A stretch of 64,000 nt of DNA. It comes from Cyanidioschyzon merolae. Its lineage: Eukaryota. Shown here piece after piece: positions 8,481-46,841 of the stretch. Where the stretch lies: the NCBI GenBank assembly GCA_000091205.1, contig AP006495.2; one strand, written 5' to 3'. The first letter of the stretch is position 1; each line of letters starts with the position of its first letter. A program made the translations under genes and the position numbers. A model generated the notes under the pieces. The model saw only the letters and a program-made list of their open reading frames with translations, had not been told where the DNA came from and searched no databases.

Positions 8481-9473
8481 ATGGCAGGGAAACAGACACG
8501 GGTCCCGAGAAAAGAGTTTTTTAGGAGAGCAGACCTGCTTCTTCATAGGCTGCGTTACGATCGAGTGAAGCTTCTGAATGAAATACCCTGGCAGCCCTAC
8601 AATCCGGACTACCAGCCGCGGAGGGATTGGCTCACCGTTGCTGCTCTGCTCCCATGTGCGCTCCTGGGCCGCTACGTTCTCGAGAGGCTAATTCTGAAAC
8701 CTTTTTTTGCAAAGTTCAGTGAAAGGGGTCGCAAATCTCCTCGTTTAGCGTCAAAGATGGCCGAGAACTGCTTTTACGCTCTTTTCTATATCTGCAGCCT
8801 GTGCGCGGGGTTGTATGTATATCGCTCGGAAAACTGGAGAGTATCCTTCTTTGATGGAGCCTGCATAAGCGCATTCTGGGAGCTGTATCCACCAATATCA
8901 ACAGTTTTTCGACTCTACTACCTTTCAGAGCTCTGCTACTACATCTCCAGTGTCATTTTTCTTCTGACGCACGATACGAAGAGGAAAGATTTTACTGAAA
9001 TGGTTGTACACCACTTGGCAACAATATCGCTTATCACATTGTCCTATATGTGGGGCTGGATGCGTCTAGGTTTGGTCATTCTCATGCTGCATGATGCGGG
9101 CGATATTCTACTGTACACTGCGAAAGTAGTGCATTATCTTGGCTTGTGGCCCTCGAATATAGTGCTTTTCGTGTGCTTTGCCATTGTATTCTATATTACA
9201 AGGCTATTCCTCTTCCCGCGAATCATTCTGTCGGTATCTACGGAGCCGTGGATTGAGGTTACCAGAGAGCCGCTCGCCAACAGAATTTGGGTTGCCTACT
9301 GGGGGTTCTATATCGTGCAATTGATTGGTTTCGCCCTTTTCCTGAATATACTTTTGTATCTTCACTGTTTTTGGTTCACACTCATTCTGAAGATGATGTA
9401 CCGTGAAGTACTGCACCCCGGAAACGCCAAGTACTCGAAAGGCGATATTCGCTCCGATGATGAAGCCGAGTAG
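8481..9473 (+). CDS. ceramide synthase, TLC/LAG1 family
   Basis: 330-aa multi-pass membrane protein starting at ATG. It carries the canonical Lag1p motif RKDFTEMVVHHLATISLITLSYMWGWMRLGLVILMLHDAGDILLYTAKVVHYLG (HH...HDxxD). Confidence 0.9.
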   Translation: MAGKQTRVPRKEFFRRADLLLHRLRYDRVKLLNEIPWQPYNPDYQPRRDWLTVAALLPCALLGRYVLERLILKPFFAKFSERGRKSPRLASKMAENCFYALFYICSLCAGLYVYRSENWRVSFFDGACISAFWELYPPISTVFRLYYLSELCYYISSVIFLLTHDTKRKDFTEMVVHHLATISLITLSYMWGWMRLGLVILMLHDAGDILLYTAKVVHYLGLWPSNIVLFVCFAIVFYITRLFLFPRIILSVSTEPWIEVTREPLANRIWVAYWGFYIVQLIGFALFLNILLYLHCFWFTLILKMMYREVLHPGNAKYSKGDIRSDDEAE

Positions 9474-10180
9474 TCGAGTTTCACCGGGCAGACCTTGTTC
9501 TCACCCGAAGAGTATCAGTTTTTGCATCTCGCAAAGAACATGCGGGGGACAGAACGATTGCTTCTCTTCGTCAGTATCAAGAATTTGCGATTTCTACGTG
9601 TCGTCGACATGCCAATCGTCTGCTGTTTCCTTAAAAAACAAAGCATTCTGCGCGTTAAAAATTGTGCGCATACGCTGGGGAAATATCTTAGCATCACAAT
9701 ACGATTCATGCTTGCACCGATGCAAGATCTTTTTTCATCTTGAAAGCTGTTCTGAGATGAAAAGGTTATTCAACGAGGACCGAGCGATCCCATGTAGTAA
9801 CGCCACCCGTGCGCTTCGCTTGCTCTTCTCCACAAGATGACCGCATACTGTGTAATCGGAAAGATGCCTGCAGTATGTGCAAGGCCAATCTAATCATTGC
9901 ATTATGAACCATGAGCGCTGTCGAGCCGCATGCATATCAACACCCTGTACGTCTGGAAGGCCAATCTGATCACAATGCAAAATCATCCAAATGCGCTTTT
10001 GGGCCGTATGCACATCAACAGGCACCCAGAGAATGCAGCAACAGATTGGTTCCATTAGCTGGGAACGTTTCGAGTCTAGCTGGAGAAGGTGCGCATGTAG
10101 AAATTAAATGACTGCAGAGCAACGACGCTCATGATTATTGATCCAGTTCAGACGTTGTTAGGCCTGATTTGGGTCTCCTC

Positions 10181-11332
10181 TCAGGTTGGAACCCACCCTA
10201 CCATGTAGACGACCTGGAAAGTTGCCCCGATCCAGTCATTGTAGTGATCTGAAACGGAAACCTGTCCGTCACCGCGAGCGTTTTCTATTTGCATGTTCGG
10301 GAGAGAGAATCGTTCGCGATATATTTTTGATGCCTGTTGTAAGACTTTGCGACTGAGCCATGATTGCCGCCCCGCTAGTGCATTGCTCTCAGCCATTTTT
10401 TGCAAATGTTTTATCAATGTCATCATATCTGGGTACGGTACAATCATCGTGTCGACGTCAATCGTGATCATTTCGAAACCAACCCGCGTGAGAAGTCGGG
10501 CTGTATCCTGGAATTCTACCATGGGGCTGGTATGGATCCCGACGCCGCCGAGGAGTGAGTCCTCAGCAAGTTGCAAGGAGACTCGGAGTTCGTGTAGAGT
10601 TTCACCACCGAGCATCGCGCCCAGAAAGACCCCTCCTGGTAGCAGTGCTGCACGAACCTGAGCGAGCATACCTGGCAAATCATTGATCCAATGCATTGCC
10701 ATGCATGAGATAGCAAGATCAAACGGCGCTTTCTCGAGATAACCTCCCTGCCATAGCGCCGGCAAGAATAATTCTTCATCCGCAGTTAGCTGTGTAGTGC
10801 GAAACGGTGTTTCTGACAGCGGAAGACGCTCTAGACCATGCTCCAACATAGCTGATGACAGCTCTACCTCTACGAGCAGCTCGAGACCAGAAACGATCTT
10901 GTTTCCAACCAAGGAACGCCGAACATATGACGCTCCAGCTCCCACGTCCAATACTCGCCGAAACGAGCAGCGAAAGTCTAGCAGTCTTTCACACAGACGT
11001 TTCGCTACTTCACTGCGTAGGTATTCATATTCTGAAAAGTCTGCCTCTTTAGCCGCCCACTGGCGCTGAAGGTATTTAACCTGACGATCGAAAACGCACG
11101 TCCCGGTGCTCGCACAACGAAGAGTGCCCCAGCGGTGCAATAACGACTTGGCCCGACTTGCCAAGCCCAGCGCTAATAGACCGCGTTGAAGGCGCGCCCC
11201 AAGCGACTTGTTCACCAACCTCGCACTCGCGCTGAGGCAAAACAGCATTCCTAAACGTGAGTGGCATATTCCTTGCGCACTCAACAACAACAAAAAATTC
11301 ACGTTCCATGCGTCGTTCCGAGAACCAAGCAT
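10181..11332 (-). CDS. class I SAM-dependent methyltransferase (NDUFAF5/BioC-like, Methyltransf_11 type), probable mitochondrial presequence
   Basis: 383 aa starting at ATG. SAM motif I is RVLDVGAGASYVRRSL, acidic motif II is LVEVELSSAM, motif III region is LAISCMAMHWINDLPG. The N-terminus is R/L/S-rich. Confidence 0.7.
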   Translation of the reverse strand: MLGSRNDAWNVNFLLLLSAQGICHSRLGMLFCLSASARLVNKSLGARLQRGLLALGLASRAKSLLHRWGTLRCASTGTCVFDRQVKYLQRQWAAKEADFSEYEYLRSEVAKRLCERLLDFRCSFRRVLDVGAGASYVRRSLVGNKIVSGLELLVEVELSSAMLEHGLERLPLSETPFRTTQLTADEELFLPALWQGGYLEKAPFDLAISCMAMHWINDLPGMLAQVRAALLPGGVFLGAMLGGETLHELRVSLQLAEDSLLGGVGIHTSPMVEFQDTARLLTRVGFEMITIDVDTMIVPYPDMMTLIKHLQKMAESNALAGRQSWLSRKVLQQASKIYRERFSLPNMQIENARGDGQVSVSDHYNDWIGATFQVVYMVGWVPT

Positions 11333-11787
11333 GCTGTGGCCAACTGCGATTCAGTGCATTCGGTTCTGGAGATGGTTGCCTTCGTGCGTTAGTTCGGCAA
11401 ATTCTGTTCCCTGAATATCGAAGCGACTCTTTCTAGATGCCTCTAGAGCAATAATCCACAATGTCCGTCTTTGCCGCCGACTTTATTCATGAGGATTCCC
11501 CAGGTGTCTGACACTGAGCACCGTTCCAGAGACGCAAAGTGGCACCTCGGCTAGCGCGTCTCTCATGGATCCGCGAAGGCGCTGCCCTGCTGTTCGTCCA
11601 CATGATTTTTAGTATTAGATACGAACGAATTGGATGGTGCTTGCGCTTGAAGTCACTGTGCTGGTAGACGTTGCGCTGAAACCCGTGTGGTCCTAAAACG
11701 GAACGTGTTTACCAAGGTAACGCTGGCATGCGTCCAAACATTCGGGTCTAGAGCCATTTGCACCAACACCAGCATTTGCGACCTTTT

Positions 11788-13093
11788 TCACTGACTGCTT
11801 CTTCCTCCACTCTCTATAGCTCGCACCTCCGGTTTTGAACGCGCGAGTCTCCCTTGTTCCTCTACCTCTGTTGTAAGCAGTCGAAGGACGTTGATGGCAG
11901 CGTTCAAGTCTCGATTTGGCTGCACCCGGCTTCTGTCAGAGCATTTCATGCACAGACGGAAGTAGCGATCTAAGTTTCGGTTGCTATGTTCATCTCCTGT
12001 ATTTTCAGCCTCGATGTGCGATTCGCAGCAGTAACATTTGGCTATTGTTAGGTGTTCCCATATGTCCAACAAAACTCCTTTTCCGGGTGCAGCCCTGTCG
12101 GACGTGACGGTCCGCTTCATCGCTCGATATAATCTCATGACTGGTACAGAATGATCCCCCGGATGCCCTCCTTTGTTTCCACGCGGGTTGCTGTGCACGA
12201 GGATCGCGGATTTGTTCTGGGCAAAATTCTCAGTGAGTAGCCCTTCCTTTCTACGCAAACGGGCAAGCGGATCCATTCGAGAGAGGACTTTTTGGAATGA
12301 TATGTTGTCCGTGATGAATCGGGTATCGAAAGGAAAACCAATGCCGAAGTACAAGCTCAGAAATTTCGGTCCTTCTGTACACAGGTCATGTCAAATGGTC
12401 ACGTATTCTTGAAGTGAAGCGAAAGCTCCAATGACCGAAGTCCGCTTCCATGATTCTTTACCCTAAAAACAAAAAATACTCTAGCGCCGTGGACCAAATC
12501 ACATGAGTGGAACCATGCTATTGTGAAATGCCTTTTCTTTTTCGTCAAAGAGAATGGAAGATCTGTTCTTCGCATGGAATCGATAAATCTTACAGCTGAA
12601 TTCCAGGGATCTTCCGGCATCAGCAGCTGAACAGGTCCTCAGGGAACGACGTTCAGTTTTCCCTTCCTACTATTCAGGGGGCGCGTTTCAGTGTCCACGA
12701 TTTGCCTTGAAACGGAAAGAGCCATGCTTGAACAATTTGCGATTTGAGCATACCACGCGTGAGGAGAAGAAAAGATTGAAGGTTTTTACATATGCGTTGG
12801 AGGATGCTATCGCTTCTTTTACGAATTCTTGCCCGAGCGCTTCGCAACTCACATTGATAAAGGTGAGGTGACGAACTCGAGAGAGGAAGCGTCGAAGGAG
12901 CCACTTCGAAAAGATGACCTGGAATCCTCAGAGTACTTGTGAACCCGTGAGTCCTTAGTGCTGCACATCCAATGTCGAGGATGCACATCGAAAAAGTGCG
13001 GAAAAAATAAGATGGCATAAACAAAGCGAGCGATCTAATGTTCGATTTACCTCTGACACGGACATCGCCATGTGCTCGCTGCGCGAATCTCAA
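11788..13093 (-). pseudogene. frameshifted TnpB/Fanzor-like RuvC nuclease relic (about 400 codons across three frames)
   Basis: C-terminal piece: GVLLDIWEH (RuvC-II Glu region), TIAKCYCCESH...LCMKCSDRS (CxxC...CxxC zinc finger), NRDLNAAINVLRL (RuvC-III). Upstream, in another frame, CILDIGCAALRTHG resembles RuvC-I GIDxG. The three ORFs 11788..12354, 12399..12620 and 12674..13093 are in three different frames. Confidence 0.65.
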
Positions 13094-13324
13094 GCGACGT
13101 CTTACAAAGCTCGGAAGCTCTTATCTGTCCAGAACATTGCACTCACAGCGCTTCCTCACTATAGTCGACAGTGCCGCTGCTCGTTTAGCGAGAGAGCGAG
13201 AGGAAAATCCTCCCGAAAACATATCACTTCCTAATTTCGGTCTGAAGCAACCGTTTTCGGACTGGTCTGGCAGTTTTTCAAAGAACACGCCATACTTGTC
13301 CCCGGAAATAGTCCGTTGGCTGCC

Positions 13325-14350
13325 ATGTTTACGCTCCAGTACTTGAACCCAGTGCGCGTCAAAGCATCTGTGCGGCAGGGGGGTGTAGCGGTTTGCCGCA
13401 GGGACCAGAGACGCGTGCGGCTTGTGCCTGCGATACATGCGCAACTCTTGCGGAACTTGAAGTATGCGATTCCTGACGAGAAATTCAAACAGTTTGCTAC
13501 CCGCTCCGGCGGGGAGTTTATCGGCTTTGAGGCGTATTTCGATGCGACGACTGGAGAACCGCTCGAAGTACCAGAGCGTTTTGTTCCTCAGGAGTACCGC
13601 GACTGGCACGTTCGTGTGTTCGGTCTCGATGAAAACTACTCAGAGGCTATTGATGGGGCCACGCTTTTTGGCAAAAGGCAGCTTATAGACGTGAAGGTTG
13701 GTTGCCAAGAAGATGCTGTGAGTGCAGAGGCAAAGCATATCACTATAGATCTCAGCAGAACGGATATGCATGCAGTATTCCCATGTGGATGCTTCTCAGC
13801 ACGTCTATCAGCGACCTCAGCACACGATGAGAAAGTTTTGTTCTCTTTAATATTTCGCGATTTGAAAGAGCTGCGTCGCATCCAAATCGAATTCACCGCG
13901 TTTCCGCTGGAGTCGAAGCACCCGTTTGGTCGGGAGATTGTCGTTCGGCGCGAAATGTATGATCAGCCGTTTAACGGGGGGGTTCAGCTCATCGGTTGCG
14001 GCGGCAAAGTTGAGAGCTTCGTTACATTTGAACGCCGGCTAGGTTCACCCCGCGGCCTGCGTCGTCGCATTTGCTCGCTAGACGATCACGTGTCTATGGA
14101 AACGATTCGGGATCTTGCAGGAGATACTCGACAAGAATTTAGAGAGGTACACTTTCTGAGCTTGCCGGCAAACATCAGCGTGCGTCGTTATGCGACGCGC
14201 GATGCAAGTACACTCGTCTATGAGGCTGCTGCTATGATCAGTGATCTCTCGACTGGGCCTGGTCCAGCGCTAGCGCTGGCAAGGAACTACGATGCAAGCA
14301 CTGGCCAATACAAGGGCTCAGAGCTTTTCATCGAATTCTTTGAGAACTAA
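13325..14350 (+). CDS. hypothetical protein (341 aa), no family recognised
   Basis: Long clean ORF (first ATG at 13325; the track ORF starts TTG at 13316) with normal amino-acid composition. Its last 23 bp overlap the 3' end of the convergent P5A-ATPase gene. Confidence 0.55.
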   Translation: MFTLQYLNPVRVKASVRQGGVAVCRRDQRRVRLVPAIHAQLLRNLKYAIPDEKFKQFATRSGGEFIGFEAYFDATTGEPLEVPERFVPQEYRDWHVRVFGLDENYSEAIDGATLFGKRQLIDVKVGCQEDAVSAEAKHITIDLSRTDMHAVFPCGCFSARLSATSAHDEKVLFSLIFRDLKELRRIQIEFTAFPLESKHPFGREIVVRREMYDQPFNGGVQLIGCGGKVESFVTFERRLGSPRGLRRRICSLDDHVSMETIRDLAGDTRQEFREVHFLSLPANISVRRYATRDASTLVYEAAAMISDLSTGPGPALALARNYDASTGQYKGSELFIEFFEN

Positions 14351-17300
14351 GCGTTGCGAGGTAATGCACAAGAATGTTCCAGATCCAAGCTGCGATAAAG
14401 TCGCCGCTCAGGAGAGCGAAAACAAGCCAACGAGCTTGCCAACTAGGCAACGCTGCGAGCTCCATGTACTGATTCAGTTCGGGCGACACTTCCAGACATG
14501 CAGCAAGCATTAGAAAAGCGCAAGCTAGAAGCGAATATAGCAGGGCCTTGTTCTTCGTTATGCTCTGCATGAATGGTTCGCCCTTGTAATTGACCAGAAA
14601 GACCGAGACCTGCTGCATCGTTGACAGAAGAAAAACGATCGTATTGAGGATATTTGGCGCAAATTCCCCCTTGAGATCCACTTCAAAGTCTGGAGGAAGG
14701 TATGCCTGCGACAGCGCTGTGCAGCATGCAAGCGCGAAGAGGTGAATCGCGAACTGACCCACAAGCGATATGAACAGACTTGGTGTAAACATGGAGCGAG
14801 GGGGACGCTGTGGCGCCAGCCGAGCAAGCGGTTTGCCGCGCGATACAAAATAAAATGCAATTGCGATCAGAATACCGGTAACCGTCATCTGCCGATCACC
14901 AAATTTGACTCCCTCCAAATAAAGCACACTGAGGCTGTACGCAGATATCAGGCAATTCAGAGCAAGAATTTGATACATTTGCAACGTTGTCACCAGCGTG
15001 CAGCGACCTTGTCGGATTATGTCCACACAACTAGCAATGCTCGCTCGCTTAGACGTAAAGGGCGAGGCGATTGATGCATCTCCCAACCGCACAATTGGCA
15101 TCTCGTTATCCAGTTCCAACAGAGAGCCCGACCTAGGTCCATGCGAGGATTCAGAACGTCTGTGGTCCCCATTGTGAGATCTTGTCGAAGTGCTTGCATG
15201 CGCTCGCAAACTGGCATTTGCGGCAGTGGACCCGAGCTGCGGATCCAATGACGGGCGACTCTGTGCAGAGGGCGATCCTAGAGTATCCTGCTTGGCGACG
15301 GATTGTAGCAGCGCCACGCCGACGTGCGCCTGCTTGAGGGCGCCCACGTCATTGGTCCCATCACCACACATTAGGCAGTACATTCCGGCATCCTTCAAGC
15401 TAGTGATAACGAGTTCTTTTTGCGAAGGGGTCATTCGGGCGAAAACTTGGACATATTGAAGCAGCTCCTTCAAGCTCGCGCCACGCATCCGATACTCGTT
15501 CAGCACGTCACCAGTCATCGCCAAATTGTATTCAGAGCCAAGCTTGGGCAACTCAGCAGCCTCAAATTTCCGACTATTTTCGATTTTCCCATGCATGGCG
15601 CGTGACGGCTTCACCCACACAAAATCGCTCGTTGCTGCTTCTCCCGGCCTCGTGCAGAGAATAAGATTCTTCTTCCTACGAGAGCAAATTCCAGTTTCAA
15701 GCGCGACATACAACGCGGTCATGAGCGAGTCACCTGTAATCATCGCCACTAGATGATTTGACTTGCGAAGGGCCTTAATTGCGCCACGGGAATCTGGTCT
15801 CGCAGGACACCGAAAGGCAGCAAAACCTGCAAATTGAAGCTCGCACTCGATCGCACCCCTGCTGAGCCGCCGTATCTCCGCATGGGTCATTTCGGCCGAC
15901 AACTCTTTCGTTGCGAGTGCAATCACGCGCATACCGTCCATCGCGAGTTGGCGATACTGCGCATCATAATCAGGGGGAACCTCCCTCAGGCAACCACGAA
16001 CTGACTCGGGAGATCCCTTGACGAGACTGAGAAGGTACGGTGTCCTGGTAGATTCTCCATCTGATACGGATACGGCTACACTCATCCGCTGAATGGTAGC
16101 ATCGAAACCGTGCCGCTGCAGTATCTGTATACGTGTTCCCCGACATGATCCCTCCCGCGCGTAGACTGTATTGTTGGCACCGAGGGTCCAACCGATTGCC
16201 CTGAAGGCAGCTGACTCGATGGGGTCACCGGAAACCTCTCCGCTCAGGGAAACCAGCGAGTTACAAGCAGCCAAAACCAGTATCGCATGTTTCGGCATGT
16301 TTTCCGCTGGGGTCAGCGAGTCCTGGCCAGTACACAAAAGTCCAGCAAAGTCAAGTCTGTCGACGGTTAGGGTTCCCGTCTTATCAAAAAGGCACACGTC
16401 GAGCATACCGGCGTACGGGATCCGGAACGGTTCTGTGCAGAAAATCCCCATCTTTGCGAGATCCGCAAGCGAGCCCTGAACTGCGAGAGAAAGCTGCATT
16501 GGGAGCTCAGGCGGGATCACCGACGTGATAATCAGCACGCAGTGCAACAACAGTTCATACCGAGATCTTGAAGGATCGCGCAGACCGTGGTGAAGCACGT
16601 ACGCCGAGGCTACTACCGCGAATACCAAAAGAAAAAGAATACAGAGAAAGCTCTCTCGGTTGTTCGCCGAAGCTGTCTGGCTGGAATACATAATCGTGCG
16701 CAACAGTTTTCCCTGTGCAGATCCGAACCCCGTGCGGAGAACGCAACCAACACAGTAATTGCCCGGTGGTGGAGGAATCGAGCCCCAGTCATTTCCTGGG
16801 GTTTCAGTTTGCAAGAGCATTGTCCCGCCGAAAAGGACATGCATCTTGTCCTTGGTTCGCGGTTGAAGTTCCGATCCATTGCTTCCAGCACTTCTGGCCG
16901 CTTCTGATTCCTCTATTCTAAGGGCTTCTTTCATCAGAGGAACAGATTCTCCAGTTAGCAGCGATTCGTTCACAACAACCTTTCCTGCCAGCAAAAGAAT
17001 ATCGCAAGGCACTGCTAAACCCTGGGGACTTGTGCCTAGGGCCACAAGGTCGAGCGGTACTAGCTTATCGGAGAGCACCCGCTTCCATTTGGCGTCCCTG
17101 TATGCGAGCAACGGGTACGGCTGGATGCGCATGTCGCGCAACTCTCGGAGGCTGCGCTGTCGTGATCGGACGACTGTTGCCTCGAAACTAAGCATCATAC
17201 CGAGCGTCATGAGAGAGTACTTCCACATTTCATCGAGACACCACAGAATGACACAGAAAACTTGGAAAGCGAAAAGCGGTGCTGTAAGCTGCTCCTTATA

Positions 17301-17843
17301 GAGCTCCCAGAAACTGGGCATAGGAATTTGCAACCTATTCTGGCCGTACTGTTCGAGCTTTGTAGAGACCTCCGCTGTGCTCAAGCCTTTCACACCCTCA
17401 TGGAGATAGAAGCTCAAGGGAAACTCATCCGGGTACCGCAGCTTGCAGAACCTATGCTCACCATCATCAAAGTAATAACGACGACACTGAAACTCGAAAA
17501 AAAACTTGTCATGCTCTTTTCGAAGTGCTACAATTTCTGGACGGCCACGATGAACCCGCGGCTCGACTAAGAGATGCGTACTTTGAACTAGGTCGCTCGT
17601 GACAAAATAGCCTATTCGACGATCAAAGTGCGCTGACCAAAAGCGGGCCAACCAGCACAAGATCTGTAGGATCACCGCCGCTCCCAGGCACAGAAGCGTG
17701 CTGAACGCACTCCATTGTTTTACCGCGAACAAAACTCCGAGTGTTACGTAGGCGACAAGAAAAGGTTGCACATCAAGACGTTGCCAAAAGCCGCGTTTTT
17801 TTAGCAGGGTAACGCGTGTGATCACTTTTCCGTCCGTTCTCAT
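14328..17843 (-). CDS. P5A-type cation-transporting ATPase (Spf1/ATP13A1 family)
   Basis: DKTGTLT phosphorylation motif (CLFDKTGTLTVDRL), GDGTNDVGALKQAHVGVAL hinge, P5 signature PPELPMQ. About 1170 aa from the ATG at 17843 (the track ORF extends to a TTG at 17960). Uninterrupted. Confidence 0.9.
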   Translation of the reverse strand: MRTDGKVITRVTLLKKRGFWQRLDVQPFLVAYVTLGVLFAVKQWSAFSTLLCLGAAVILQILCWLARFWSAHFDRRIGYFVTSDLVQSTHLLVEPRVHRGRPEIVALRKEHDKFFFEFQCRRYYFDDGEHRFCKLRYPDEFPLSFYLHEGVKGLSTAEVSTKLEQYGQNRLQIPMPSFWELYKEQLTAPLFAFQVFCVILWCLDEMWKYSLMTLGMMLSFEATVVRSRQRSLRELRDMRIQPYPLLAYRDAKWKRVLSDKLVPLDLVALGTSPQGLAVPCDILLLAGKVVVNESLLTGESVPLMKEALRIEESEAARSAGSNGSELQPRTKDKMHVLFGGTMLLQTETPGNDWGSIPPPPGNYCVGCVLRTGFGSAQGKLLRTIMYSSQTASANNRESFLCILFLLVFAVVASAYVLHHGLRDPSRSRYELLLHCVLIITSVIPPELPMQLSLAVQGSLADLAKMGIFCTEPFRIPYAGMLDVCLFDKTGTLTVDRLDFAGLLCTGQDSLTPAENMPKHAILVLAACNSLVSLSGEVSGDPIESAAFRAIGWTLGANNTVYAREGSCRGTRIQILQRHGFDATIQRMSVAVSVSDGESTRTPYLLSLVKGSPESVRGCLREVPPDYDAQYRQLAMDGMRVIALATKELSAEMTHAEIRRLSRGAIECELQFAGFAAFRCPARPDSRGAIKALRKSNHLVAMITGDSLMTALYVALETGICSRRKKNLILCTRPGEAATSDFVWVKPSRAMHGKIENSRKFEAAELPKLGSEYNLAMTGDVLNEYRMRGASLKELLQYVQVFARMTPSQKELVITSLKDAGMYCLMCGDGTNDVGALKQAHVGVALLQSVAKQDTLGSPSAQSRPSLDPQLGSTAANASLRAHASTSTRSHNGDHRRSESSHGPRSGSLLELDNEMPIVRLGDASIASPFTSKRASIASCVDIIRQGRCTLVTTLQMYQILALNCLISAYSLSVLYLEGVKFGDRQMTVTGILIAIAFYFVSRGKPLARLAPQRPPRSMFTPSLFISLVGQFAIHLFALACCTALSQAYLPPDFEVDLKGEFAPNILNTIVFLLSTMQQVSVFLVNYKGEPFMQSITKNKALLYSLLACAFLMLAACLEVSPELNQYMELAALPSWQARWLVFALLSGDFIAAWIWNILVHYLATLSSQRIR

Positions 17844-18379
17844 CGGGTGCAGTACAAGTACCGGGTCACGTTCTGCGAGGGATATACGCCGAGCGCCGTG
17901 TTTGTTGTTTACGAACTGTATTGCGCTTTGAGGGACGCGCCTGCAGCTGTTCCCGAACAACTCGGTATATCTGACAGTGTGCGCTTCTCATGGGAAACTG
18001 GTCAGTTTTGCTTGGAAAAGCAGCTCGTTTGGGTGAGTTTGTTCTTGTGCCCTCTGCTTTTCTTGCAGGCAGCCTGCTTTTATGGTCAAGAAGGAGCCCT
18101 AGTGAACGTACGGAAAAAACTGCAAATACGACGAGGACCTGAATGCGAGACAGCCGAGTTGCCAACACGCGACGCTGTGCAATCTTTTTGACGTTGATCA
18201 CGTGATAGAAACCTCATGTCTGGAGCTGACGGCTGCTCTGAGGGCTGAGCAGCGGCTACGGGGTCGCTCGGCAACCTAACGTAGAAAACACGCCGTGCGG
18301 AGCCGTTCTGAGAACTCTTGGCGTCCTACTGAAGGCTCACAGCTTGTAAAGCATTAGAATGATTAGATGAAAATAGTTT

Positions 18380-20500
18380 TTATGTGGAAGCCCCTGAGGG
18401 ATCGTTCGAAACGACGTTGCTGATTGGGAAACGAAAGTCCTCGCTTACCCCCATACTCCACATAAACTTTTCCTGTAGCGCGCGAGGGAATATTCGCTCA
18501 ATAGGAACCTCATGTCTTTTGCACCAAGCAACTGTTATTCGCGGATCTAAATAGTTGATCTTAGAGGTGCTCAACGACACCGTAGCGAGCGAATCCCTCG
18601 TTTTCAGGTCAGCCTCTAGGCGCCTGATTTTTTCCTGTGTTTGCGCTATTCCTCGTGTGATAGACGCGAGCCCCATGTTCACTACCTGTTTTTCTTTCGG
18701 TCGCTTTTCGGCCTCCTCGCGAATGCGCTTTCGCTCAGCGAGGGAGCAGTCCTCGGGAATCTCAACTACTGGCCGTCGCCAGCGTGTTACTTGTGCGCGG
18801 CTGTCTGGAGATGCCTGAGCCTTTCCTCGAGCCATTTTGAGCGCCTCAAGATACGCTCTGCTCTCCTCTAGCTTATCGCGCAGTCTTTCAAGCATTAACG
18901 AATGAGTCTTTGGAAGGGATCGCTGATGGTTACATAATACAGCTACATCTTTGTTCGCCTCATTGTAGAACAGAAGGCGCGAATGAATATCCGGTCCAGG
19001 GGTTTTCACGCTGTGCAAAAGCTTATCAAGGGTGTAAGATGCATTGTAGGTGCGAAAAACTTTCGCAGATAGGCCCGGCATTAGGCTTTTCAAATAGTCA
19101 TTAAGTTCCTCGACTTTCAGTTCGTCGAATACATTATCTGATACTCGTTTTCCTTTCAAGAACTCTCGCAGGCGATGAAAAACTAGCGCTTCGACTCGCA
19201 CTCTGTTAAAGTATCGCATCGAATCCTTGCCGAGAAAGTCGAGCTGCACTATATTAGGCTCTTGAAGGGTTATGTGTTCTACCCGCAGGGAGCAGCAACC
19301 AACAGTGTCCGCTTCGTCTTCTCCTTTCTCGTTCCCGACTCGGAGTGCAAGCTTATCAATAAGATACAGTGCGACGGATCTCTGCTGCGTGTGCCTATCA
19401 GCAGATTCTAATCCTTTCGTGTACTCATTGCGTATCTTCGTGATATGCTTGCTCAGCTGCTGCGCCTTCTCAAATTTTTCTTGATCGCTCATCGCCTTGA
19501 AGTGCGAAGACGCACTCAGCCAGACGTACTTGTACTCATCGGAGATTGGATCTCGCCAGCAAGCCAGCCACGTGACCCTCTGGTTGTGCACGATGGATCC
19601 CCAGTCATGGCCTTTAAATGGACACGGCGGAATAGGTGCGTCACGACCAAGATTCAGTGTGACATCCTCTGGGAATATGCGACGTTTGACTCGGCCCATT
19701 AGCGGATGGTCACCGCGCCCCAGGAAGAGACCCGGAGGCTCGACACGATAATTGGCCACTTTCTCCTTGCGTCCATCAACGATTGCAACCGTGTAATGCG
19801 CAACTCTTTGCGCTTCCGCTTCTCGTAACTCTTTCCGTTTGCTTGGAGGCATGCTTTGTTTTCGTTCTTTCAGCTCGTCGAGATACTCCCGGATACGGCT
19901 GAAGTCACAGTGTTCGAGTTTCACGATGCGCTTCCGTAAATCAACGGGCAAGGTCTTCCGAAAGTCGTCAAAAAAGTTTTTCCGAAATGTTTCCTTTTCT
20001 AAATAAACAGTTCCCAACTTCGACGCATAAAAGGTGGCCACTTCTTCGGCCTCGGGCGGGAGCGCTATTTCGCAGCCATCGTAGAGTAGAGGCCGTCCGT
20101 GCGGTTCATATTCCGGAGGGAATAAGACTCCGTTATGTTCGAGGCTGCACCACTTGATCGATTCATCTTCCGCTCTATGTTTAGTACTTGTTGCCTGCAA
20201 CTTTTTCGCCTTGCGGTGCTTTTCGGCTTTCATTCGTTCGCATTTCCTTTTCGGCGCTTTTCGACATGGTTCGACTTTGCCCTTCCTTCTACTGCACTCC
20301 TTCTTTCTTTCCGTACCAATAAGTAGAGCTAGAGGCAGTTCATCTTCCGAAAGTGCAGCTGAGGAAGACTTCTTGGCAACCTGTATCGACGGTGCGCCGA
20401 AGCCACCTTGTCTGGCAACTGAAACAACTCTCGGCACCGATTCTCCAGAGTTCCCAAGGAGTTCAGAAAGCGGTATCTCGTCAGGGTCCTGCTGATGCAT
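18380..20500 (-). CDS. TOP1: DNA topoisomerase I, eukaryotic type IB
   Basis: Core and catalytic region with active-site Tyr in [28 protein letters not shown] (human: [26 protein letters not shown]). Lys/Glu-rich N-terminal domain; [15 protein letters not shown] core start. First ATG at 20500 (the track ORF starts GTG at 20644). Confidence 0.93.
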   Translation of the reverse strand: [706 protein letters not shown]

Positions 20501-35670: not shown

Positions 35671-38316
35671 CTACGAGAGGTCGAATCCGAAATTTTGGGT
35701 AATAGCATACTTCAGCTTCTCCCGCATGGCCTCTCGAGTCGAATATGGGGGGAGTTTGAGCAGATTCATGCACGTGGAGGCCGTGGGATACCGTGATGCG
35801 TCGTCACCAGCTTTTTGAATGCAAAACGGGGGGTTCAGATACTGAAACCCGAGCAGGGGTGCTCTTGGCGAGCTTGTCACGAATTGGAGAAGGGCTGCTC
35901 GCTCTGAGTCCGATAGATCTTCTTGCACAACTTGCCAAAACAGTTCAACCGTTCCCGAGTTCTCGGAGTATCCACCTGAGTATGTTACGTTGCTGCGCAA
36001 GTTGTCAATGTCAATCTTGCCAGAGCAATCGCCTGAGATCAACTCACGAAGCTCCCATTCATTGAACATCTGAATCCATTCTCTCTCGATGACATCGAAG
36101 AAACCGCTCATAAAGGCTGTCGTCTGTGCTTTGATCTGCCGATTCAGCCTATAGTCAGCTACGCGATGCATGTACTCCAGCCGATTGTCCCAAGTCACTG
36201 GAATGGAACTCCCTCCAGGAATCAGCTCCTTCTCAACTGCTTCCCCGAATTCATTGTCGACAACAGTAAATGTCAGACAAAGGTCTCCAAACGAGTTAGG
36301 ATCAGCATGCCGAAGAAATTTCAGATTTCGATGCAGCTCCGGATCCAGAGAACGCAAATCGTTAAGATCATTACTTATACCCAACAGTTTGCGTAAGAAG
36401 AATGATGCTATCGGGAGATCTACCAAGATCGCATCGTAGAGCGCCTTGCCCAGAATACGCCCAAGAAAAGAAAACTGTTCCAAATGATTCGACGGTGCGA
36501 TGACACTCGAGGCCGGATTAGGGAAAAGCTCCCCACCATCTGTTGCCTTAAATAGACCATAATGGGTCGGCGAGAATGCGAATCGAATCAGTTGATGCAT
36601 GAACTCTTTGAAGACACCACCTCCATCAACACCGGCCTCCTCAAGGCCGTACTCGTCCACGAATTTAACTCGAATATTCTCACGAAGTCTGGATCCCAGA
36701 GAGTTCAGTTGCGCAAAAGCATCCTCGACGATAAAGTTACGCCGTATAGTGATCCAAATCCCATTCATACCGAAGAAAGACTGACCTCCGCCGGCTCGCG
36801 CCTTTTCCTGTGCTATGCATCCGTGGAAGATGCGCACGCGCGTCTCAAAAGAGATGGAGAAGGGAGCCATTCGCAGCAGCGGCATACCGCTATTTTTCCG
36901 AACAGATTCACGCACGAACAGCTCCGGTGCCTTGCGTGCAGCCTGAACTTCCCAGAGCGACTCACGTTGTACTGTAAAGGGTCGCCTTGCATCCCTTGCC
37001 CATAGCGCTAGCAACAAGCGACTAGACGCCTGTAGAACGTCAGCCGCGGCCAAGTCCCATTTGTTCCGGCCAGTCGGGCGGGCACCTGTGCTTGTTGTGT
37101 AGAGTCTCCAAAACAGCTGTTCTTTCAACTCATTGATTATCTCCAGAACAAAGGACAGATTGGTCGCAGAGTAAAAGTCATCGTCGTCCATCACTAAGGT
37201 TGATACGCGGAAGGACTCACAGAAGAGTCGAAGCAAGGCCCCCGATGAAGAAATCATGAGCGAATGCCACATTTGACGGAGGTAGTCTCGGGAATGAGAG
37301 AATGCAAGGACAGCGCATACGCGGTGGTTCATAGCATCGTGCTTCTCCAATAGTTCCGCAAAACGCCTCCAGTTTTCCGGATCCCATTCGAGTGCGTGCA
37401 TCAAACTTTTGAGGAAAACGTCGCTCTGAGTTAGTTTTGAAGCGAGCTCGTCCAACGGACCGACCCGATCGACGACAAAGCTCAGCAAGAAAACGTGGTG
37501 TTTCGAGGATGGAAGCGACAGAGTGAGATCGCATATTCTGCGTATTGCACTCTTGCTAAGCGTAACTCCATGTTCTGCAATCAGTTTCGCTAAGCTTTCG
37601 CTGAACAAGTGCGCAGTGGCTGGCATGTCTATGTCATCACTAGTCATCACCAGTGTCGGTGCATCTATGAGGAACCTCCCGAACTCAGCGGATGGTCCAC
37701 ATATACGGCATATTTCCTTTGCAGATTCGCCAGTTGTGCGGCCTCGCATAAGCGCAAGGATGGTATTAGCGAACCGCTGCACGGCTGTAGCACAGCGTCG
37801 AGCATTTTCAAGAAGGAAGGCTTCATCGCCGAGCGCAGCAGCCGATATGAAAATATGGCCTTTTAAAGCTATCGAAACATAAGTACTGCGCACGAGTTCG
37901 CCGATAAGGCCTCGGTGTTCGTACCAGTGTAGCCGTGCCTTGTCATGCTGAGCTTTCGAAAGCTGGACAAGGAAACAGAGCGCACGCACAAATCGTACCG
38001 CCGCGTGCGTGTCGTATGGCAGCGGCCCCTCACTCTGAGCAAGATTCGCGACGCGTTCCACCAACTCCGCTTCTATTATTTTAGAAAGCCGTCTGCACTC
38101 GAAGTACTGCCGTGCCAGTGATTGGATGGCCACAGCTGACCTCTCTTGAGCGCGCTGGGCAGCCCGACGTTCACGCTCCAGACGGGCCTTTAAAAGAATG
38201 CTCTCTCTCGAGGGAGCAACGTTAGATGCGCCACGGAGCGAGATAGCGCTTCTTCCCCCTGTGTCAAACAGCTTCGAAGCAGTGGCTCTCCTCGACGAGA
38301 ACTCACTCTGCATCAT
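35671..38316 (-). CDS. HECT-type E3 ubiquitin ligase with N-terminal IQ motif (UBE3B/UBE3C, plant UPL6/7-like)
   Basis: IQ motif AVAIQSLARQYFECRRL near the N-terminus. C-terminal HECT lobe with catalytic Cys, ...RYPTASTCMNLLKLPPYSTREAMREKLKYAITQNFGFDLS. 880 aa uninterrupted. In-frame ATGs at 38316/38313 (the track ORF begins TTG at 38328). Confidence 0.9.
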   Translation of the reverse strand: MMQSEFSSRRATASKLFDTGGRSAISLRGASNVAPSRESILLKARLERERRAAQRAQERSAVAIQSLARQYFECRRLSKIIEAELVERVANLAQSEGPLPYDTHAAVRFVRALCFLVQLSKAQHDKARLHWYEHRGLIGELVRSTYVSIALKGHIFISAAALGDEAFLLENARRCATAVQRFANTILALMRGRTTGESAKEICRICGPSAEFGRFLIDAPTLVMTSDDIDMPATAHLFSESLAKLIAEHGVTLSKSAIRRICDLTLSLPSSKHHVFLLSFVVDRVGPLDELASKLTQSDVFLKSLMHALEWDPENWRRFAELLEKHDAMNHRVCAVLAFSHSRDYLRQMWHSLMISSSGALLRLFCESFRVSTLVMDDDDFYSATNLSFVLEIINELKEQLFWRLYTTSTGARPTGRNKWDLAAADVLQASSRLLLALWARDARRPFTVQRESLWEVQAARKAPELFVRESVRKNSGMPLLRMAPFSISFETRVRIFHGCIAQEKARAGGGQSFFGMNGIWITIRRNFIVEDAFAQLNSLGSRLRENIRVKFVDEYGLEEAGVDGGGVFKEFMHQLIRFAFSPTHYGLFKATDGGELFPNPASSVIAPSNHLEQFSFLGRILGKALYDAILVDLPIASFFLRKLLGISNDLNDLRSLDPELHRNLKFLRHADPNSFGDLCLTFTVVDNEFGEAVEKELIPGGSSIPVTWDNRLEYMHRVADYRLNRQIKAQTTAFMSGFFDVIEREWIQMFNEWELRELISGDCSGKIDIDNLRSNVTYSGGYSENSGTVELFWQVVQEDLSDSERAALLQFVTSSPRAPLLGFQYLNPPFCIQKAGDDASRYPTASTCMNLLKLPPYSTREAMREKLKYAITQNFGFDLS

Positions 38317-39059
38317 ACAACACAGCAAACAAAGCGTGTACGTTTACGAAAACGGTCGTTGAAATACAGAACGCAGGCAGAAAGATTGATGTCATTCGGC
38401 CGCAACGCCAGAGTTTTCCGGATCTATCTCGACACCGTAAAACTTGCAGACCTCACCGTAGGCTCCCCGAGAGCTGCATACTCGTCAGAGACAGCTCCGA
38501 GGACATGTAGACATAAGCCTGGTGTATAAGTCCACCTGCCGTAGCGCTTATTTTAAGTGATTTGAGAGCTTCACTCTCGTTTGGCAAGGCTTCGTTGACA
38601 AGTTAGCATAAACCTTTTGCTGACCACGACGTTTCAGAGCGAAAGCCCGGGCGGCTACAGGGTTGCAGCCTCTTTAGTGAATGCTTCGCTGACTTTTTGT
38701 CATAAAGCTCTTGATTTGAGCTGCTTTTCTGAGGACGCGGTTGAAGTAGGCAGCGGTTAAGCAGCAGCAGCAGCCCAGATGGGCCTTTACATCTAACTTA
38801 TGCTTCGAGCACGCTTTTTGAGTGCGTTATTCTAGCCACCAGCGGCGTTCTTCCGCAAAGTTTCCGCAAAACGAAGAAAATTTAGAGCTGCTGTTACTCG
38901 ACCAAGTGTTACCTCTCTTTTAAGCTACGATATTTGCGGCTTTCAGTGCACAGTGCACACTACATCAGTCTCAGACTGAAATGAAACACTGAACTGAACG
39001 CTCTGATCCTGCGTATCGATTTTCAGAACTTTGTTTAGGTGTCCAAACTCCATTTTCGA

Positions 39060-39450
39060 ATTGCGGCAGTAAGTGCTTTTGTATTCACATGTAGTTTCAC
39101 AGTTCTCTGTCCTATTTTCGACTTTACTCGGTCGAGTCCTTGCTGTCGAAATTTGTTAGGTCACTGGTATCAAGAAGAGTCGCGACGCCCTCGAACACCT
39201 GGTTCGTAACGCGATCAGTATAGGTATTCAATTCTCACATATAGGCCTCGACTGTTCTTCTTTCCTTCTAGCATACGTAAAAGTCTTAATCGTAATTTTT
39301 TTTCGATCCTTCTTCTCCATGTCGACTCGTGAGCTCGGCAACTCTCGCTGCTTGATTTAAAAGTAAAAGTACTTTAGACCGTCGGATTAAGATTGTTCAC
39401 AAACTCGTGCCTTACGCTCACAGAACTCGGCTTGCCAGTTGATCATTTCC
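39060..39450. repeat. partial copy (5' module) of the ~1.3-kb dispersed element
   Basis: Contains CACTGGTATCAAGAAGAGTCGCGACGCCCTCGAACACCTGGTTCGTAA and CCTCGACTGTTCTTCTTTCCTTCTAGCATACG, matching copy A at 33469..33600. A further partial copy is at about 90..300 (TCGCGACGCCCTC at 126..138). Confidence 0.55.
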
Positions 39451-41790: not shown

Positions 41791-42879
41791 TCACTTTAAA
41801 AATCTGCGCGAATCGCACGGCACCTTCGCACGGTCTAAAATTGGATGTATCGACTTTCGCCAGAGTGCAGGGAATAGCAACAAAATGATCATTGTTGGAT
41901 AGCCTGCAGGGAGTTGTGGACTTTCTACTGTTGAAACGAGTAAATGATACGGCCTATCGGCATGTCGATGATGGTCCGCATGACGCTGCAATTTGAACAA
42001 GATATAATTTGTTAGGCGATGTGAGGAATTCCAACTGTGACAGTTGGAAACAGGCTCATAAATCTTCTCACCATTCGGAAGGACGTTAATGACAGCTCTC
42101 TCGAGCCCGTAATGCTCAATGTAGTTGACCATTTCAAGAAGGGTTATAGCCGTGAAACAATGGAGCAAGAAAAGGCAACATGCTCGGAGGCCGTAGAGGA
42201 AAAATATTGTCAGAAACCAAAGAACAGAGCAAGCGAAATATCTAAGTATCCGATTCTCAACGCAGAAAGTTTGAAAGCCTCGCTTCGCTAATCTCTCTCT
42301 TTCTATTTTCCAAGCGCTGCGAAAGGATCCGACGACTGTACGGGGGAAGAACGCATAGAATGATTCGCCATAGCGGGCCGTTGCGGGATCCTCTGGCGTT
42401 GCAACTCGCCTGTGGTGTCCGTAAAGATGCTCAATATAAAAATGTCCATAACACACAGAAACCAAGATTGCCTTCCCAAGCGCTACTTCAGCAGCGTTTC
42501 GTTTGTGAAAAAGTTCGTGGCTCACATTCACCCCTTGCGCAGCCAAAAGGCCCGCAGTTAGACCAAGGCCAATAAAAGATGAAACGCTCAGATCCACTCC
42601 TTCGCTTGCTAGCCTTGCTGCCCAGAAGAGAAAGGACCATTGCACGGCCGGCCATACGTACAGCACAACCCTGTACGCCAACTTATGGCGTCCACTATGT
42701 AGTTCGGCATCACACGGGTTCTCTTCGTCGAGGCCAAGAACAGCATCTAAAGCCGGTATGAGCACAAAAGCGAGGAATATCGACGCGAACGCTGTTGACC
42801 ACTTCTTGAAAATGAAACTCGTAAAAGAAACAAGGGGCACAATGTAAGCAACACTATACACTAAGGCTGTTGCTGTCAT
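41791..42879 (-). CDS. integral-membrane non-haem di-iron hydroxylase of the AlkB alkane-1-monooxygenase type (FA_desaturase superfamily)
   Basis: All four AlkB signature boxes are present: HELFHK (Hist-1), EHLYGHHRRVATPEDP (Hist-2), NYIEHYGLER (HYG motif), LQRHADHHRHADRPYH (Hist-3). Multiple N-terminal TM helices. 362 aa starting at ATG. Confidence 0.8.
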   Translation of the reverse strand: MTATALVYSVAYIVPLVSFTSFIFKKWSTAFASIFLAFVLIPALDAVLGLDEENPCDAELHSGRHKLAYRVVLYVWPAVQWSFLFWAARLASEGVDLSVSSFIGLGLTAGLLAAQGVNVSHELFHKRNAAEVALGKAILVSVCYGHFYIEHLYGHHRRVATPEDPATARYGESFYAFFPRTVVGSFRSAWKIERERLAKRGFQTFCVENRILRYFACSVLWFLTIFFLYGLRACCLFLLHCFTAITLLEMVNYIEHYGLERAVINVLPNGEKIYEPVSNCHSWNSSHRLTNYILFKLQRHADHHRHADRPYHLLVSTVESPQLPAGYPTMIILLLFPALWRKSIHPILDRAKVPCDSRRFLK

Positions 42880-45008: not shown

Positions 45009-46841
45009 ATGGAACTGAGCTCAGGGAACACGATCGAAACGGTGACGAGTGATCAGGATCTCAGGAATGAGACAGTGGGCTCGGATGATGGATCTGTCTT
45101 GAGCAAAAACGAGCTAAAGCGGCGTATGAAGGCGCAGCGCCTTGCTGCAGAGCGCGAACTGCGGCAGTCGAGCCGAGTTCAGCAACATCAGGCGGCTGCA
45201 CGCGATGCTTCCTCAGGAAACCAGGAAGCGGACGAAGAACTGATGACGTCCCAGCAGTATTTTAGCCACCGATGTCGAGTTGTCGAGCACTTTCGCTCCA
45301 GCGGAGAGGATCCCTACCCCCATAAGTTCTACGTGACGTGCAGCGTACCGCAGTTCATCGCCAAGTACTCATACTTGGGTGTAGGTGAGCGCCTCGATGG
45401 GGAAGAGGCTTTGGCAGGTCGCATTCGCTCGCGGCGCTTGTCTGGTTCGCGATTATTTTTTTACGATATTTTCGCTGATGGAACTAAAGTGCAAGTCATG
45501 GCCGACGCACGGTTGGATACTGCAGGCAATTTTGCCACTGTGCACAGTGCACTTCGCCGCGGGGACATCATAGGTGTCCGCGGCTATCCAGGACGAACGA
45601 AAACAGGTGAACTTAGTATCTTTCCCGTCGAGACGAGGCTGCTGTCACCGTGTCTACACATGCTGCCGAAACCGCACCAGATGCTAAGCGATCCAGAAAC
45701 ACGCTATCGCCAACGTTATTTGGACCTCATCGTGAACCGCGAGGTTCGCCCGATATTTGAACTCAGAGCAAATGTCATTCGCTTCATCCGCAAATTCCTG
45801 GACGAACGTGGTTTTCTCGAAGTCGAGACGCCGATCATGAATGCTGTTGCAGGTGGCGCGAACGCGAGGCCGTTTGTGACCTTTCATAACGAGCTTGGGG
45901 TCAATATGTATCTTCGCGTTGCACCAGAGCTCTACCTGAAAGAGCTCGTGATCGGCGGCCTGGATCGAGTTTATGAGTTGGGCCGAAACTTTCGAAATGA
46001 GGGTATCGATATGACGCACAATCCGGAGTTTACAGCCTGTGAATTTTACGCTGCATATCTGGACTATAAGGATTTGATGGATCTGACAGAAGCGATGTTG
46101 AGCTTGTTAGTGAAGGAGCTGACTGGGCATCTGAAAATCAAGTATCATCCCGAAGGGAGGCATGCTCTGGAGAACGAGGTCGAGATCGATTTTACCCCAC
46201 CGTTCAAACGGATCTCCGTCATGGATGCTCTGCGCGAAGCGCTTCCGAGCGAGCTGCGACCGCTATTTCCCGAATCTGAGCAACTCGGTACAGACGAGTC
46301 GCGCTTCCGTTTGGAGACTATTTGCGAGCGAGTGGGTGTAGTTTGCCCGCCTCCGGTCACAGAAGCACGCCTGCTAGATAAGCTTTTCGGGGCGCTCGTG
46401 GAGCCGAAGTGCGTTTCGCCCACGTTCGTTTGCGACCATCCGGAAATCATGAGCCCACTCGCAAAATGGCACCGGAATCGACCCGGCCTCACGGAACGGT
46501 TTGAACTTTTCGTGAATGGGCGCGAACTCTGCAATGCATACACAGAACTTAACGATCCCTTTGTGCAGAGGGAACGATTCCTGAGCTCACAACGGGACGC
46601 GGACAAAGGCGACGCGGAAGCAATGGCGAAAGATGAAGATTTCTGTACGGCGCTGGAATATGCACTTCCGCCAACTGCTGGCTGGGGCATTGGTATCGAC
46701 AGACTCGTGATGCTGCTCGCCGATCAGAACAACATCAAGGAGGTCGTGCTTTTCCCGGCACTGCGACCGCGCCCTAACTCTGACGGCGACGAGGCAGCAG
46801 AACTGCGAGATCGCGTTCAAGACCTGAAAGTTAAAGAATAA
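45009..46841 (+). CDS. KARS: lysyl-tRNA synthetase, class II (eukaryotic type)
   Basis: 610 aa starting at ATG. Anticodon-binding OB region; class II motif 2 [20 protein letters not shown]; motif 3 [31 protein letters not shown]-terminal Lys-rich tRNA-binding extension typical of eukaryotic LysRS. Confidence 0.93.

Follow-up and report, generated by a model that had tools for sequence, protein, structure and literature searches.

AlkB is seen as a bacterial alkane-degrading enzyme, and many bacteria that are not alkane degraders also carry orphan alkB genes. The closest system with a described structure is FtAlkBG from Fontimonas thermophila. Cryo-electron microscopy showed that its active site consists of nine histidines and Glu271, that the substrate tunnel narrows at Ile54 (the counterpart of Trp55 in P. 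oleovorans AlkB) and that six arginines dock rubredoxin; a small or medium-sized residue at this gate goes with the acceptance of chains longer than about C13 (PMC10113152). We analysed a gene of this type in the red alga Cyanidioschyzon merolae, within a 64-kb stretch of contig AP006495.2 (hereafter the window, that is, the whole stretch of DNA that was analysed). Our analyses suggest that it is a nuclear AlkB gene, predicted to be functional and ancestral in red algae rather than recently acquired, and that its product would carry out omega-hydroxylation of long chains in the endomembrane system with electrons from a donor encoded at an unlinked locus. We place the probability of this reading as a whole at about 0.7.

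The assignment to the AlkB type is not new, and the public genome annotation already carries it: the protein is 100% identical to BAM81102.1 / XP_005537138.1 of C. merolae 10D, annotated as "similar to alkane hydroxylase", the gene of which is located on an 867-kb chromosome record. However, a full-text literature search retrieved no study of the C. merolae gene or of red-algal AlkB, and the main text of a survey of horizontal gene transfer in Cyanidiales mentions no alkane hydroxylase, desaturase or hydroxylase (PMC6629376). The novelty may lie in the recognition of a conserved red-algal AlkB lineage without a linked rubredoxin. The open reading frame (ORF) opens with an ATG and is preceded by an in-frame stop 8 codons upstream and by several more within the preceding 300 nt, so an N-terminal extension would be impossible without an intron.

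Motifs, active site and predicted fold

An earlier note on this DNA, made from the sequence alone, had described a 362-aa ORF with the motifs HELFHK, EHLYGHHRR, NYIEHYGL and LQRHADHH, all four of which were read in the translation and fit the AlkB signatures HELxHK, EHxxGHH, NYxEHYG and LQRHxDHH. Its assignment of the protein to the bacterial AlkB type, as opposed to the sterol-desaturase or carotene-hydroxylase variants of the family, was also borne out. Pfam returned a match to PF00487 (FA_desaturase, 5.6e-33) and none to PF04116 (FA_hydroxylase), which we take to be the family of the sterol-desaturase and CrtZ-type enzymes. A phmmer search against all PDB sequences retrieved the two solved AlkB chains, 8f6t_A (4.1e-72) and 8sbb_A (8e-64), each aligned over essentially the whole protein, and these were the only matches at E <= 1. 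The NCBIfam scan of the protein matched no family.

All ten metal ligands (nine His and one Glu) mapped one-to-one in the HMMER alignment with FtAlkB, and these residues were invariant both in an alignment of 106 homologues and in an alignment of 16 sequences from the red-algal clade. The AlphaFold2 model built on the 106-sequence alignment (pLDDT 95.4, pTM 0.93) has six predicted transmembrane helices (residues 5-23, 27-48, 67-92, 99-124, 210-229 and 231-256), and a Foldseek search with this model matched 8F6T (TM score 0.90, root-mean-square deviation 1.8 Å) and chain A of 8SBB (TM score 0.87), with the next match at a TM score of 0.40. The residue at the tunnel gate is Ala37. By analogy with the solved enzyme, this small residue would be of the long-chain-permissive type; the position is occupied by A, V, T, S or I in the red clade and by V, A, L, T or I in the other homologues. 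The sequence, together with the predicted fold, confirms that the gene is a true member of the AlkB family (class III integral-membrane diiron monooxygenases), as every feature that can be tested on a sequence was found except a linked redox partner.

Two further observations concern the protein. The third Foldseek match, which was weak (TM score 0.40, E 0.027), corresponded to 8xqw_M, chain M of the Chlamydomonas Ycf2-FtsHi chloroplast import-motor complex, and this comparison with a predicted model suggests that the complex contains a membrane subunit of the desaturase/AlkB superfamily. The variable C-terminal tail contains a cysteine, Cys355 (41815-41817), and 9 of the 16 red-clade sequences have a cysteine at or near the same alignment position (columns ~596-600), for which lipidation and a redox function are possibilities.

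Red-algal orthologues, substrate and electron donor

The homologues in related algae that the earlier note had proposed to look for were found in Cyanidiococcus yangmingshanensis (71% identity), the cyanidiophyte assembly GCA_041825655.1 (66%) and Cyanidium caldarium (53%), in each case on a large contig among eukaryotic genes, and also in Porphyridium purpureum (41%; a 2.4-Mb contig, beside SAPS, RING, RlmN and EMP70 genes) and Pyropia vietnamensis (a 1.09-Mb contig, among eukaryotic genes). These orthologues span at least three red-algal classes, and the best named matches of the Porphyridium protein, when used as the query, were those of Cyanidiophyceae. No AlkB from Galdieria or Chondrus was present among the best 120 matches of either query, although both proteomes are in the database (FTHFS was found), and this suggests lineage-specific loss.

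Cyanidiococcus, GCA_041825655.1 and Cyanidium share a common gene order (RETICULATA-like, RPL3, CRT-like, glutaredoxin, PRPP synthase, AlkB ... P5A-ATPase, topoisomerase I), and the Cyanidium block additionally holds a TLC-domain gene and RRN3. The TLC, P5A-ATPase, topoisomerase I and RRN3 genes all lie within ~10 kb downstream of AlkB on the same contig in Cyanidium, and all four are retained in the C. merolae window, where the TLC orthologue is 32 kb from AlkB. The C. merolae gene has therefore kept its chromosomal neighbourhood and was shifted only 21-32 kb by local rearrangement. In view of this synteny, AlkB can be firmly considered ancestral at least to Cyanidiales and Cyanidioschyzonales.

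The ORF is intact and all the metal ligands are invariant in the four cyanidiophyte orthologues (4/4), with proportions of synonymous (pS) and nonsynonymous (pN) differences of 0.75-0.83 and 0.16-0.35, respectively. Synonymous sites were saturated in every cyanidiophyte pair, so dN/dS was dropped and the statement is limited to pN being much lower than pS. On these grounds, the gene is maintained by purifying selection.

By analogy with bacterial AlkB, the enzyme would use O2 and two electrons to hydroxylate the end of a long aliphatic chain (> ~C13). The substrate chain would enter laterally from the membrane via a hydrophobic tunnel, with the terminal methyl group presented to the diiron centre, as in FtAlkB (PMC10113152). 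The most obvious candidate substrates are the endogenous C15-C17 alka(e)nes that red algae produce with fatty acid photodecarboxylase (FAP), since the FAP enzymes of Galdieria and Chondrus yield C15-C17 hydrocarbons (bioRxiv 10.1101/2020.06.23.166330); this link between FAP and AlkB is speculative. The electron donor would probably be a small redox protein from an unlinked locus, either cytochrome b5, ferredoxin or rubredoxin, rather than a dedicated AlkG, and cytochrome b5 could be the donor if the enzyme is located in the endoplasmic reticulum (ER), by analogy with the FA_desaturase superfamily (PMC8918992). The earlier note had raised a possible location in the plastid or ER. An N-terminal presequence is absent in all five Cyanidiophyceae AlkB proteins (5/5) and the first transmembrane helix begins at about residue 5, which argues against a classical plastid transit peptide and probably favours a signal-anchored protein of the ER or endomembrane system. 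The homologues from non-cyanidiophyte red algae have extensions of 35-130 aa.

Several findings speak against parts of this proposal. Galdieria and Chondrus, the red algae in which FAP has been demonstrated, are absent from the AlkB matches listed, a poor fit to a simple coupling of FAP and AlkB. The motif scan of the window detected neither rubredoxin nor cytochrome b5, and neither was present among the Pfam-annotated neighbours at five other red-algal AlkB loci. Furthermore, two of the six positions equivalent to the AlkG-docking arginines are basic in C. merolae AlkB (R127 and K199). The docking arginines were considered as a test of partner type and rejected, since these positions also vary among bacterial AlkBs. 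The missing linkage to a redox partner does not disqualify the gene as an AlkB, because many bacterial alkB genes also lack a linked partner (PMC8918992).

The alternative that survives best is an AlkB-fold hydroxylase with a non-alkane substrate, acting on the omega-end of a fatty acyl or sphingoid chain or on a methyl group of an isoprenoid or carotenoid. We consider this a serious possibility, albeit an unlikely one. It would be consistent with the orphan alkB genes of bacteria that do not degrade alkanes, with the lack of an alk operon around the nearest non-red relatives (P0007 and P0013), with an acidic hot spring habitat that would offer no obvious external supply of alkanes, and with the gene order in Cyanidium, in which a TLC-domain gene of the ceramide-synthase type (L090 12018-12995) lies ~1 kb, two genes, downstream of AlkB on the same strand. 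However, in eukaryotes the proximity of two genes says little about function, C. merolae AlkB has the metal site and predicted fold of an alkane-oxidising AlkB, and its gate residue is inside the range of the long-chain alkane hydroxylases.

We therefore retain terminal hydroxylation of a long aliphatic chain as the proposed function. A more specific version, in which red algae would for more than a billion years have used a eukaryote-adapted AlkB without a dedicated rubredoxin to hydroxylate the C15-C17 hydrocarbons that FAP makes in their own cells, or else a related membrane lipid, is doubtful; if it were true, a photosynthetic eukaryote would possess an internal pathway of hydrocarbon turnover or signalling. 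A conserved and constrained red-algal AlkB would imply an endogenous eukaryotic use of terminal C-H hydroxylation on long aliphatic chains, and the existence of this lineage would imply a form of electron delivery other than the AlkG/AlkT paradigm. The function is directly testable, as C. merolae is genetically tractable.

Age and origin of the red-algal gene

Trees were inferred by neighbour-joining (NJ) with Kimura or gamma distances and complemented by a home-made maximum-likelihood (ML) quartet test. The NJ analysis of 217 sequences over 351 columns united the proteins of Cyanidiophyceae, Porphyridium and Pyropia with eight unlabelled metagenome proteins in one clade, at bootstrap values of 0.80-0.83. 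With 384 sequences, including 32 named bacterial and archaeal genomes, the bootstrap value was 0.71 for the red clade and 0.98 for Cyanidiophyceae, and the topology, in which Cyanidiophyceae branched opposite a Porphyridium group joined to a Pyropia group plus a six-member unlabelled group, mirrored the red-algal phylogeny. The red clade received a value of 0.65 with gamma distances (alpha = 0.5). The six-member metagenome group is probably eukaryotic and red-algal, since one of its contigs (L002) encodes a monofunctional FTHFS of the plant type, for which the best named matches come from the florideophytes Chondrus (70%) and Agarophyton (68%) and the next from green algae.

A BLOSUM62-derived rate matrix with 4 gamma categories was used to evaluate the ML quartets, each of which consisted of a cyanidiophyte, another red alga, one of 40 non-red sequences and the AlkB of Acinetobacter or Alcanivorax; the 40 non-red sequences were the 24 most similar to red algae and 16 chosen sequences, including NJ neighbours of the red clade, protist transcriptome proteins, Sericytochromatia and a metagenome-assembled genome (MAG) of Promethearchaeota. 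The grouping of the two red algae was the best in 462 of 480 quartets (96%), with a weight > 0.95 in 383 (80%). In a long-branch control, with eight equally divergent non-red sequences in the place of the second red alga, the corresponding grouping was the best in 193 of 320 quartets (60%), so the red-algal signal is clearly above the long-branch baseline. The common ancestor of red algae most probably already had AlkB, which would since have been inherited vertically, subject to local rearrangement in C. merolae and probably to loss in some lineages.

Nevertheless, the monophyly of the red-algal sequences is moderately supported, and this history has to be set against a number of unfavourable results. 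The bootstrap value of the red clade dropped to 0.32 when the fastest third of the columns was removed, the baseline of the quartet control is itself high, several bacterial proteins (44-47%) are closer by raw score to C. merolae AlkB than is that of Porphyridium (41%), and the GC content at third codon positions (GC3) of AlkB is unusually low for the window (see below). The low value on the slowest two-thirds of the columns and the 60% baseline would be compatible with at least two independent ancient transfers from bacteria, one into the ancestor of Cyanidiales and Cyanidioschyzonales and a separate one into that of the remaining red algae, with the red clade as a long-branch artefact; the same holds for the apparent absence of Galdieria among the matches listed and for the number of clade-specific signature columns in red-algal AlkB, which is only two. 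Such a scenario appears improbable, since the proportion of quartets supporting the red grouping is far above the control, the best named matches of the Porphyridium query are cyanidiophyte proteins and the internal topology of the clade mirrors the species tree.

The earlier note had presented the gene as a candidate for horizontal transfer in C. merolae. A recent transfer of a bacterial alkB gene into the Cyanidioschyzon lineage is not supported, and we consider it very improbable, although AlkB is an overwhelmingly bacterial family and most of the best 120 matches are prokaryotic or metagenomic. Orthologues are found across the red-algal classes and are syntenic within Cyanidiophyceae (Cyanidiococcus, GCA_041825655.1 and Cyanidium), the Porphyridium and Pyropia homologues group with those of the cyanidiophytes, and synonymous sites between the cyanidiophyte orthologues are saturated. 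The phylogeny proposed in that note placed AlkB within a red-algal group (NJ 0.65-0.83; ML quartets 96%), a result that goes largely against the transfer claim.

The base composition and codon usage of AlkB, compared with those of the other 15 long ORFs of the window, gave a mixed picture. The GC3 of AlkB (0.467) is the lowest of the 16 ORFs (0.547 +/- 0.026 in the others, z = -3.1), which would favour a recent transfer, and its overall GC content (0.473) is also low, versus 0.51-0.54 in the named neighbour genes and 0.476-0.568 across the other long ORFs. However, the choice of synonymous codons is native-like and typical of the window (z = -0.46, rank 6/16). The statement that the local composition matches that of the neighbours thus holds for codon choice but not for GC content, and we regard the GC3 signal as weak and ambiguous.

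No potential donor emerged from the scan of GTDB species genomes, in which no sequence exceeded 46% identity to C. merolae AlkB and no coherent donor phylum was apparent. The best matches were scattered over Calditrichaceae, a Promethearchaeota MAG, Leptospira, Myxococcota, Alphaproteobacteria, Gammaproteobacteria, Actinomycetota and Bacteroidota, and the neighbours of the red clade in the 384-sequence NJ tree had bootstrap values of <= 0.07. A cyanobacterial or endosymbiotic origin has no specific support, because the Sericytochromatia and Blackallbacteria matches (44%) showed no particular affinity to the red clade (quartet weight of 1.0 for the red grouping). An ancient bacterial origin preceding the diversification of red algae is possible, and would be the natural explanation because almost all other AlkBs are prokaryotic.

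The surroundings of AlkB are eukaryotic nuclear DNA. The gene lies between those for a HECT ligase and a lysyl-tRNA synthetase, as the earlier note had stated, and the wider window encodes ChlD, a polyprenyl synthase, Pho88, a gamma-glutamyl transpeptidase, topoisomerase I, a P5A-ATPase, RRN3 and a TLC-domain protein, among others (Table 1). The counts from a scan for bacterial promoters and terminators around AlkB were at chance level. Bacterial contamination or a chimeric assembly, already considered unlikely in the earlier note, can be dismissed almost entirely, since nothing beyond the bacterial-looking family speaks for it and against it stand the eukaryotic genes on both sides, the occurrence of the identical protein on 7 contigs from several sources (the largest of 867 kb), environmental metagenome variants only 1-3 residues away, and the syntenic orthologues in three other independently assembled genomes.

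Table 1. Coordinates of AlkB, its sequence features and other genes in the C. merolae window
Feature	Coordinates	Strand	Evidence or correspondence
RRN3	1636-3441	-	
Remnant of the ancestral AlkB neighbourhood	8481..20500		Synteny
TLC-domain gene	8481-9473	+	
P5A-ATPase	14328-17843	-	
Topoisomerase I	18380-20500	-	
HECT-domain ubiquitin ligase, flanking gene	35671..38328	-	
AlkB-family integral-membrane diiron monooxygenase, coding sequence, 362 aa	41791..42879	-	ORF translation, Pfam, phmmer
His box 3, LQRHADHH, residues 297-304	41968..41991	-	H300, H303, H304 = FtAlkB H311, H314, H315
NYIEHYGL motif, residues 252-259	42103..42126	-	E255, H256 = FtAlkB E271, H272, Fe2 ligands
His box 2, EHLYGHHRR, residues 150-158	42406..42432	-	H151, H155, H156 = FtAlkB H167, H171, H172
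His box 1, HELFHK, residues 121-126	42502..42519	-	H121, H125 = FtAlkB H137, H141, Fe1 ligands (PMC10113152)
Ala37 codon, substrate-tunnel gate position	42769..42771	-	= Trp55 of P. oleovorans AlkB, Ile54 of FtAlkB
Class-II lysyl-tRNA synthetase, flanking gene	45009..46841	+	
PF04116 FA_hydroxylase ORF, 292 aa	58219-59097	+	Pfam, 1.7e-27

Two other features of the window deserve mention. The spacer between the HECT ligase gene and AlkB (38329-41790, 3.4 kb) contains no ORF > 119 aa and no tRNA, and its length seems unusual given the compactness of the genome; it could be a trace of the rearrangement that took AlkB out of the ancestral gene block, or could conceal a gene that is non-coding or interrupted by introns. 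The ORF at 58219-59097 is the second membrane diiron enzyme gene of the window, and belongs to the sterol-desaturase / C4-methyl-oxidase / CrtZ-type family.

Our searches also retrieved AlkB homologues outside of the red algae. The second-best match among GTDB species genomes was a homologue (43% identity) in the Promethearchaeota MAG WJMJ01000079.1 (172-kb contig, L007 6001-7026), which did not group with red algae in the ML quartets and could correspond either to mis-binning or to a real archaeal AlkB. AlkB-like proteins from the transcriptomes of four unrelated phagotrophic protists, P0033 (Gefionella), P0137 (Rhodelphis marinus), P0163 (Colponema) and P0047 (Cafeteria), share 50-53% identity with one another and are mutually nearest or near-nearest, with nothing in the 384-sequence alignment more than 57% identical to any of them. 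They clustered loosely in the NJ tree (bootstrap <= 0.31), with the Rhodelphis protein outside the red-algal clade, and they may be real eukaryotic genes or may come from uncharacterised prey or symbiont bacteria. A further set (P0053, P0058, P0202, P0214, P0215 and P0189) is characterised by an N-terminal extension of ~100 aa, which starts with MPL[VIF]E..A[ST].[DS][TS]AC[IV]STAPVF, and by extra hydrophobic segments; this group, in which P0189 comes from the Tara eukaryotic metatranscriptome, adjoined the red clade without support. These loosely related genes in protist transcriptomes and marine eukaryotic metatranscriptomes provide a hint that AlkBs may occur more widely among eukaryotes than has been recognised.

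Comparison with described systems

The C. merolae protein resembles bacterial AlkB (Fontimonas thermophila FtAlkB/FtAlkBG, 8F6T and 8SBB; Pseudomonas putida GPo1) in its identity of 37% across the catalytic core, its six transmembrane helices, its nine His and one Glu, its four motifs and its predicted fold. However, the C. merolae gene is nuclear, with no rubredoxin or reductase fused or linked to it, four of the six AlkG-docking arginines are replaced by non-basic residues, and the gate position is occupied by Ala rather than by Trp (GPo1) or Ile (Ft). Furthermore, the protein belongs to a red-algal clade that lacks a close bacterial sister.

The orphan, stand-alone alkB genes of Calditrichaceae, Leptospira, Myxococcota, Bacteroidota MAGs and others encode the nearest non-red relatives, with 41-47% identity and a similar length (~350 aa). 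On the two contigs examined, those of P0007 and P0013, the gene was found in a dense bacterial context with no rubredoxin fusion and no alk operon. In contrast to the C. merolae gene, the orphan genes have a prokaryotic context and their products fall outside the red-algal group in the ML quartets.

The eukaryotic members of the FA_desaturase superfamily (the fatty-acid desaturases of the ER and plastid, and the carotene hydroxylase CrtR of cyanobacterial type) share with C. merolae AlkB the PF00487 domain and a His-box diiron chemistry, and by analogy with them cytochrome b5 (ER) or ferredoxin (plastid) could act as the electron donor (PMC8918992). The C. merolae protein nevertheless differs from these enzymes in possessing the AlkB-specific NYxEHYG motif and the ninth histidine, and in the specific match of its predicted fold to AlkB.

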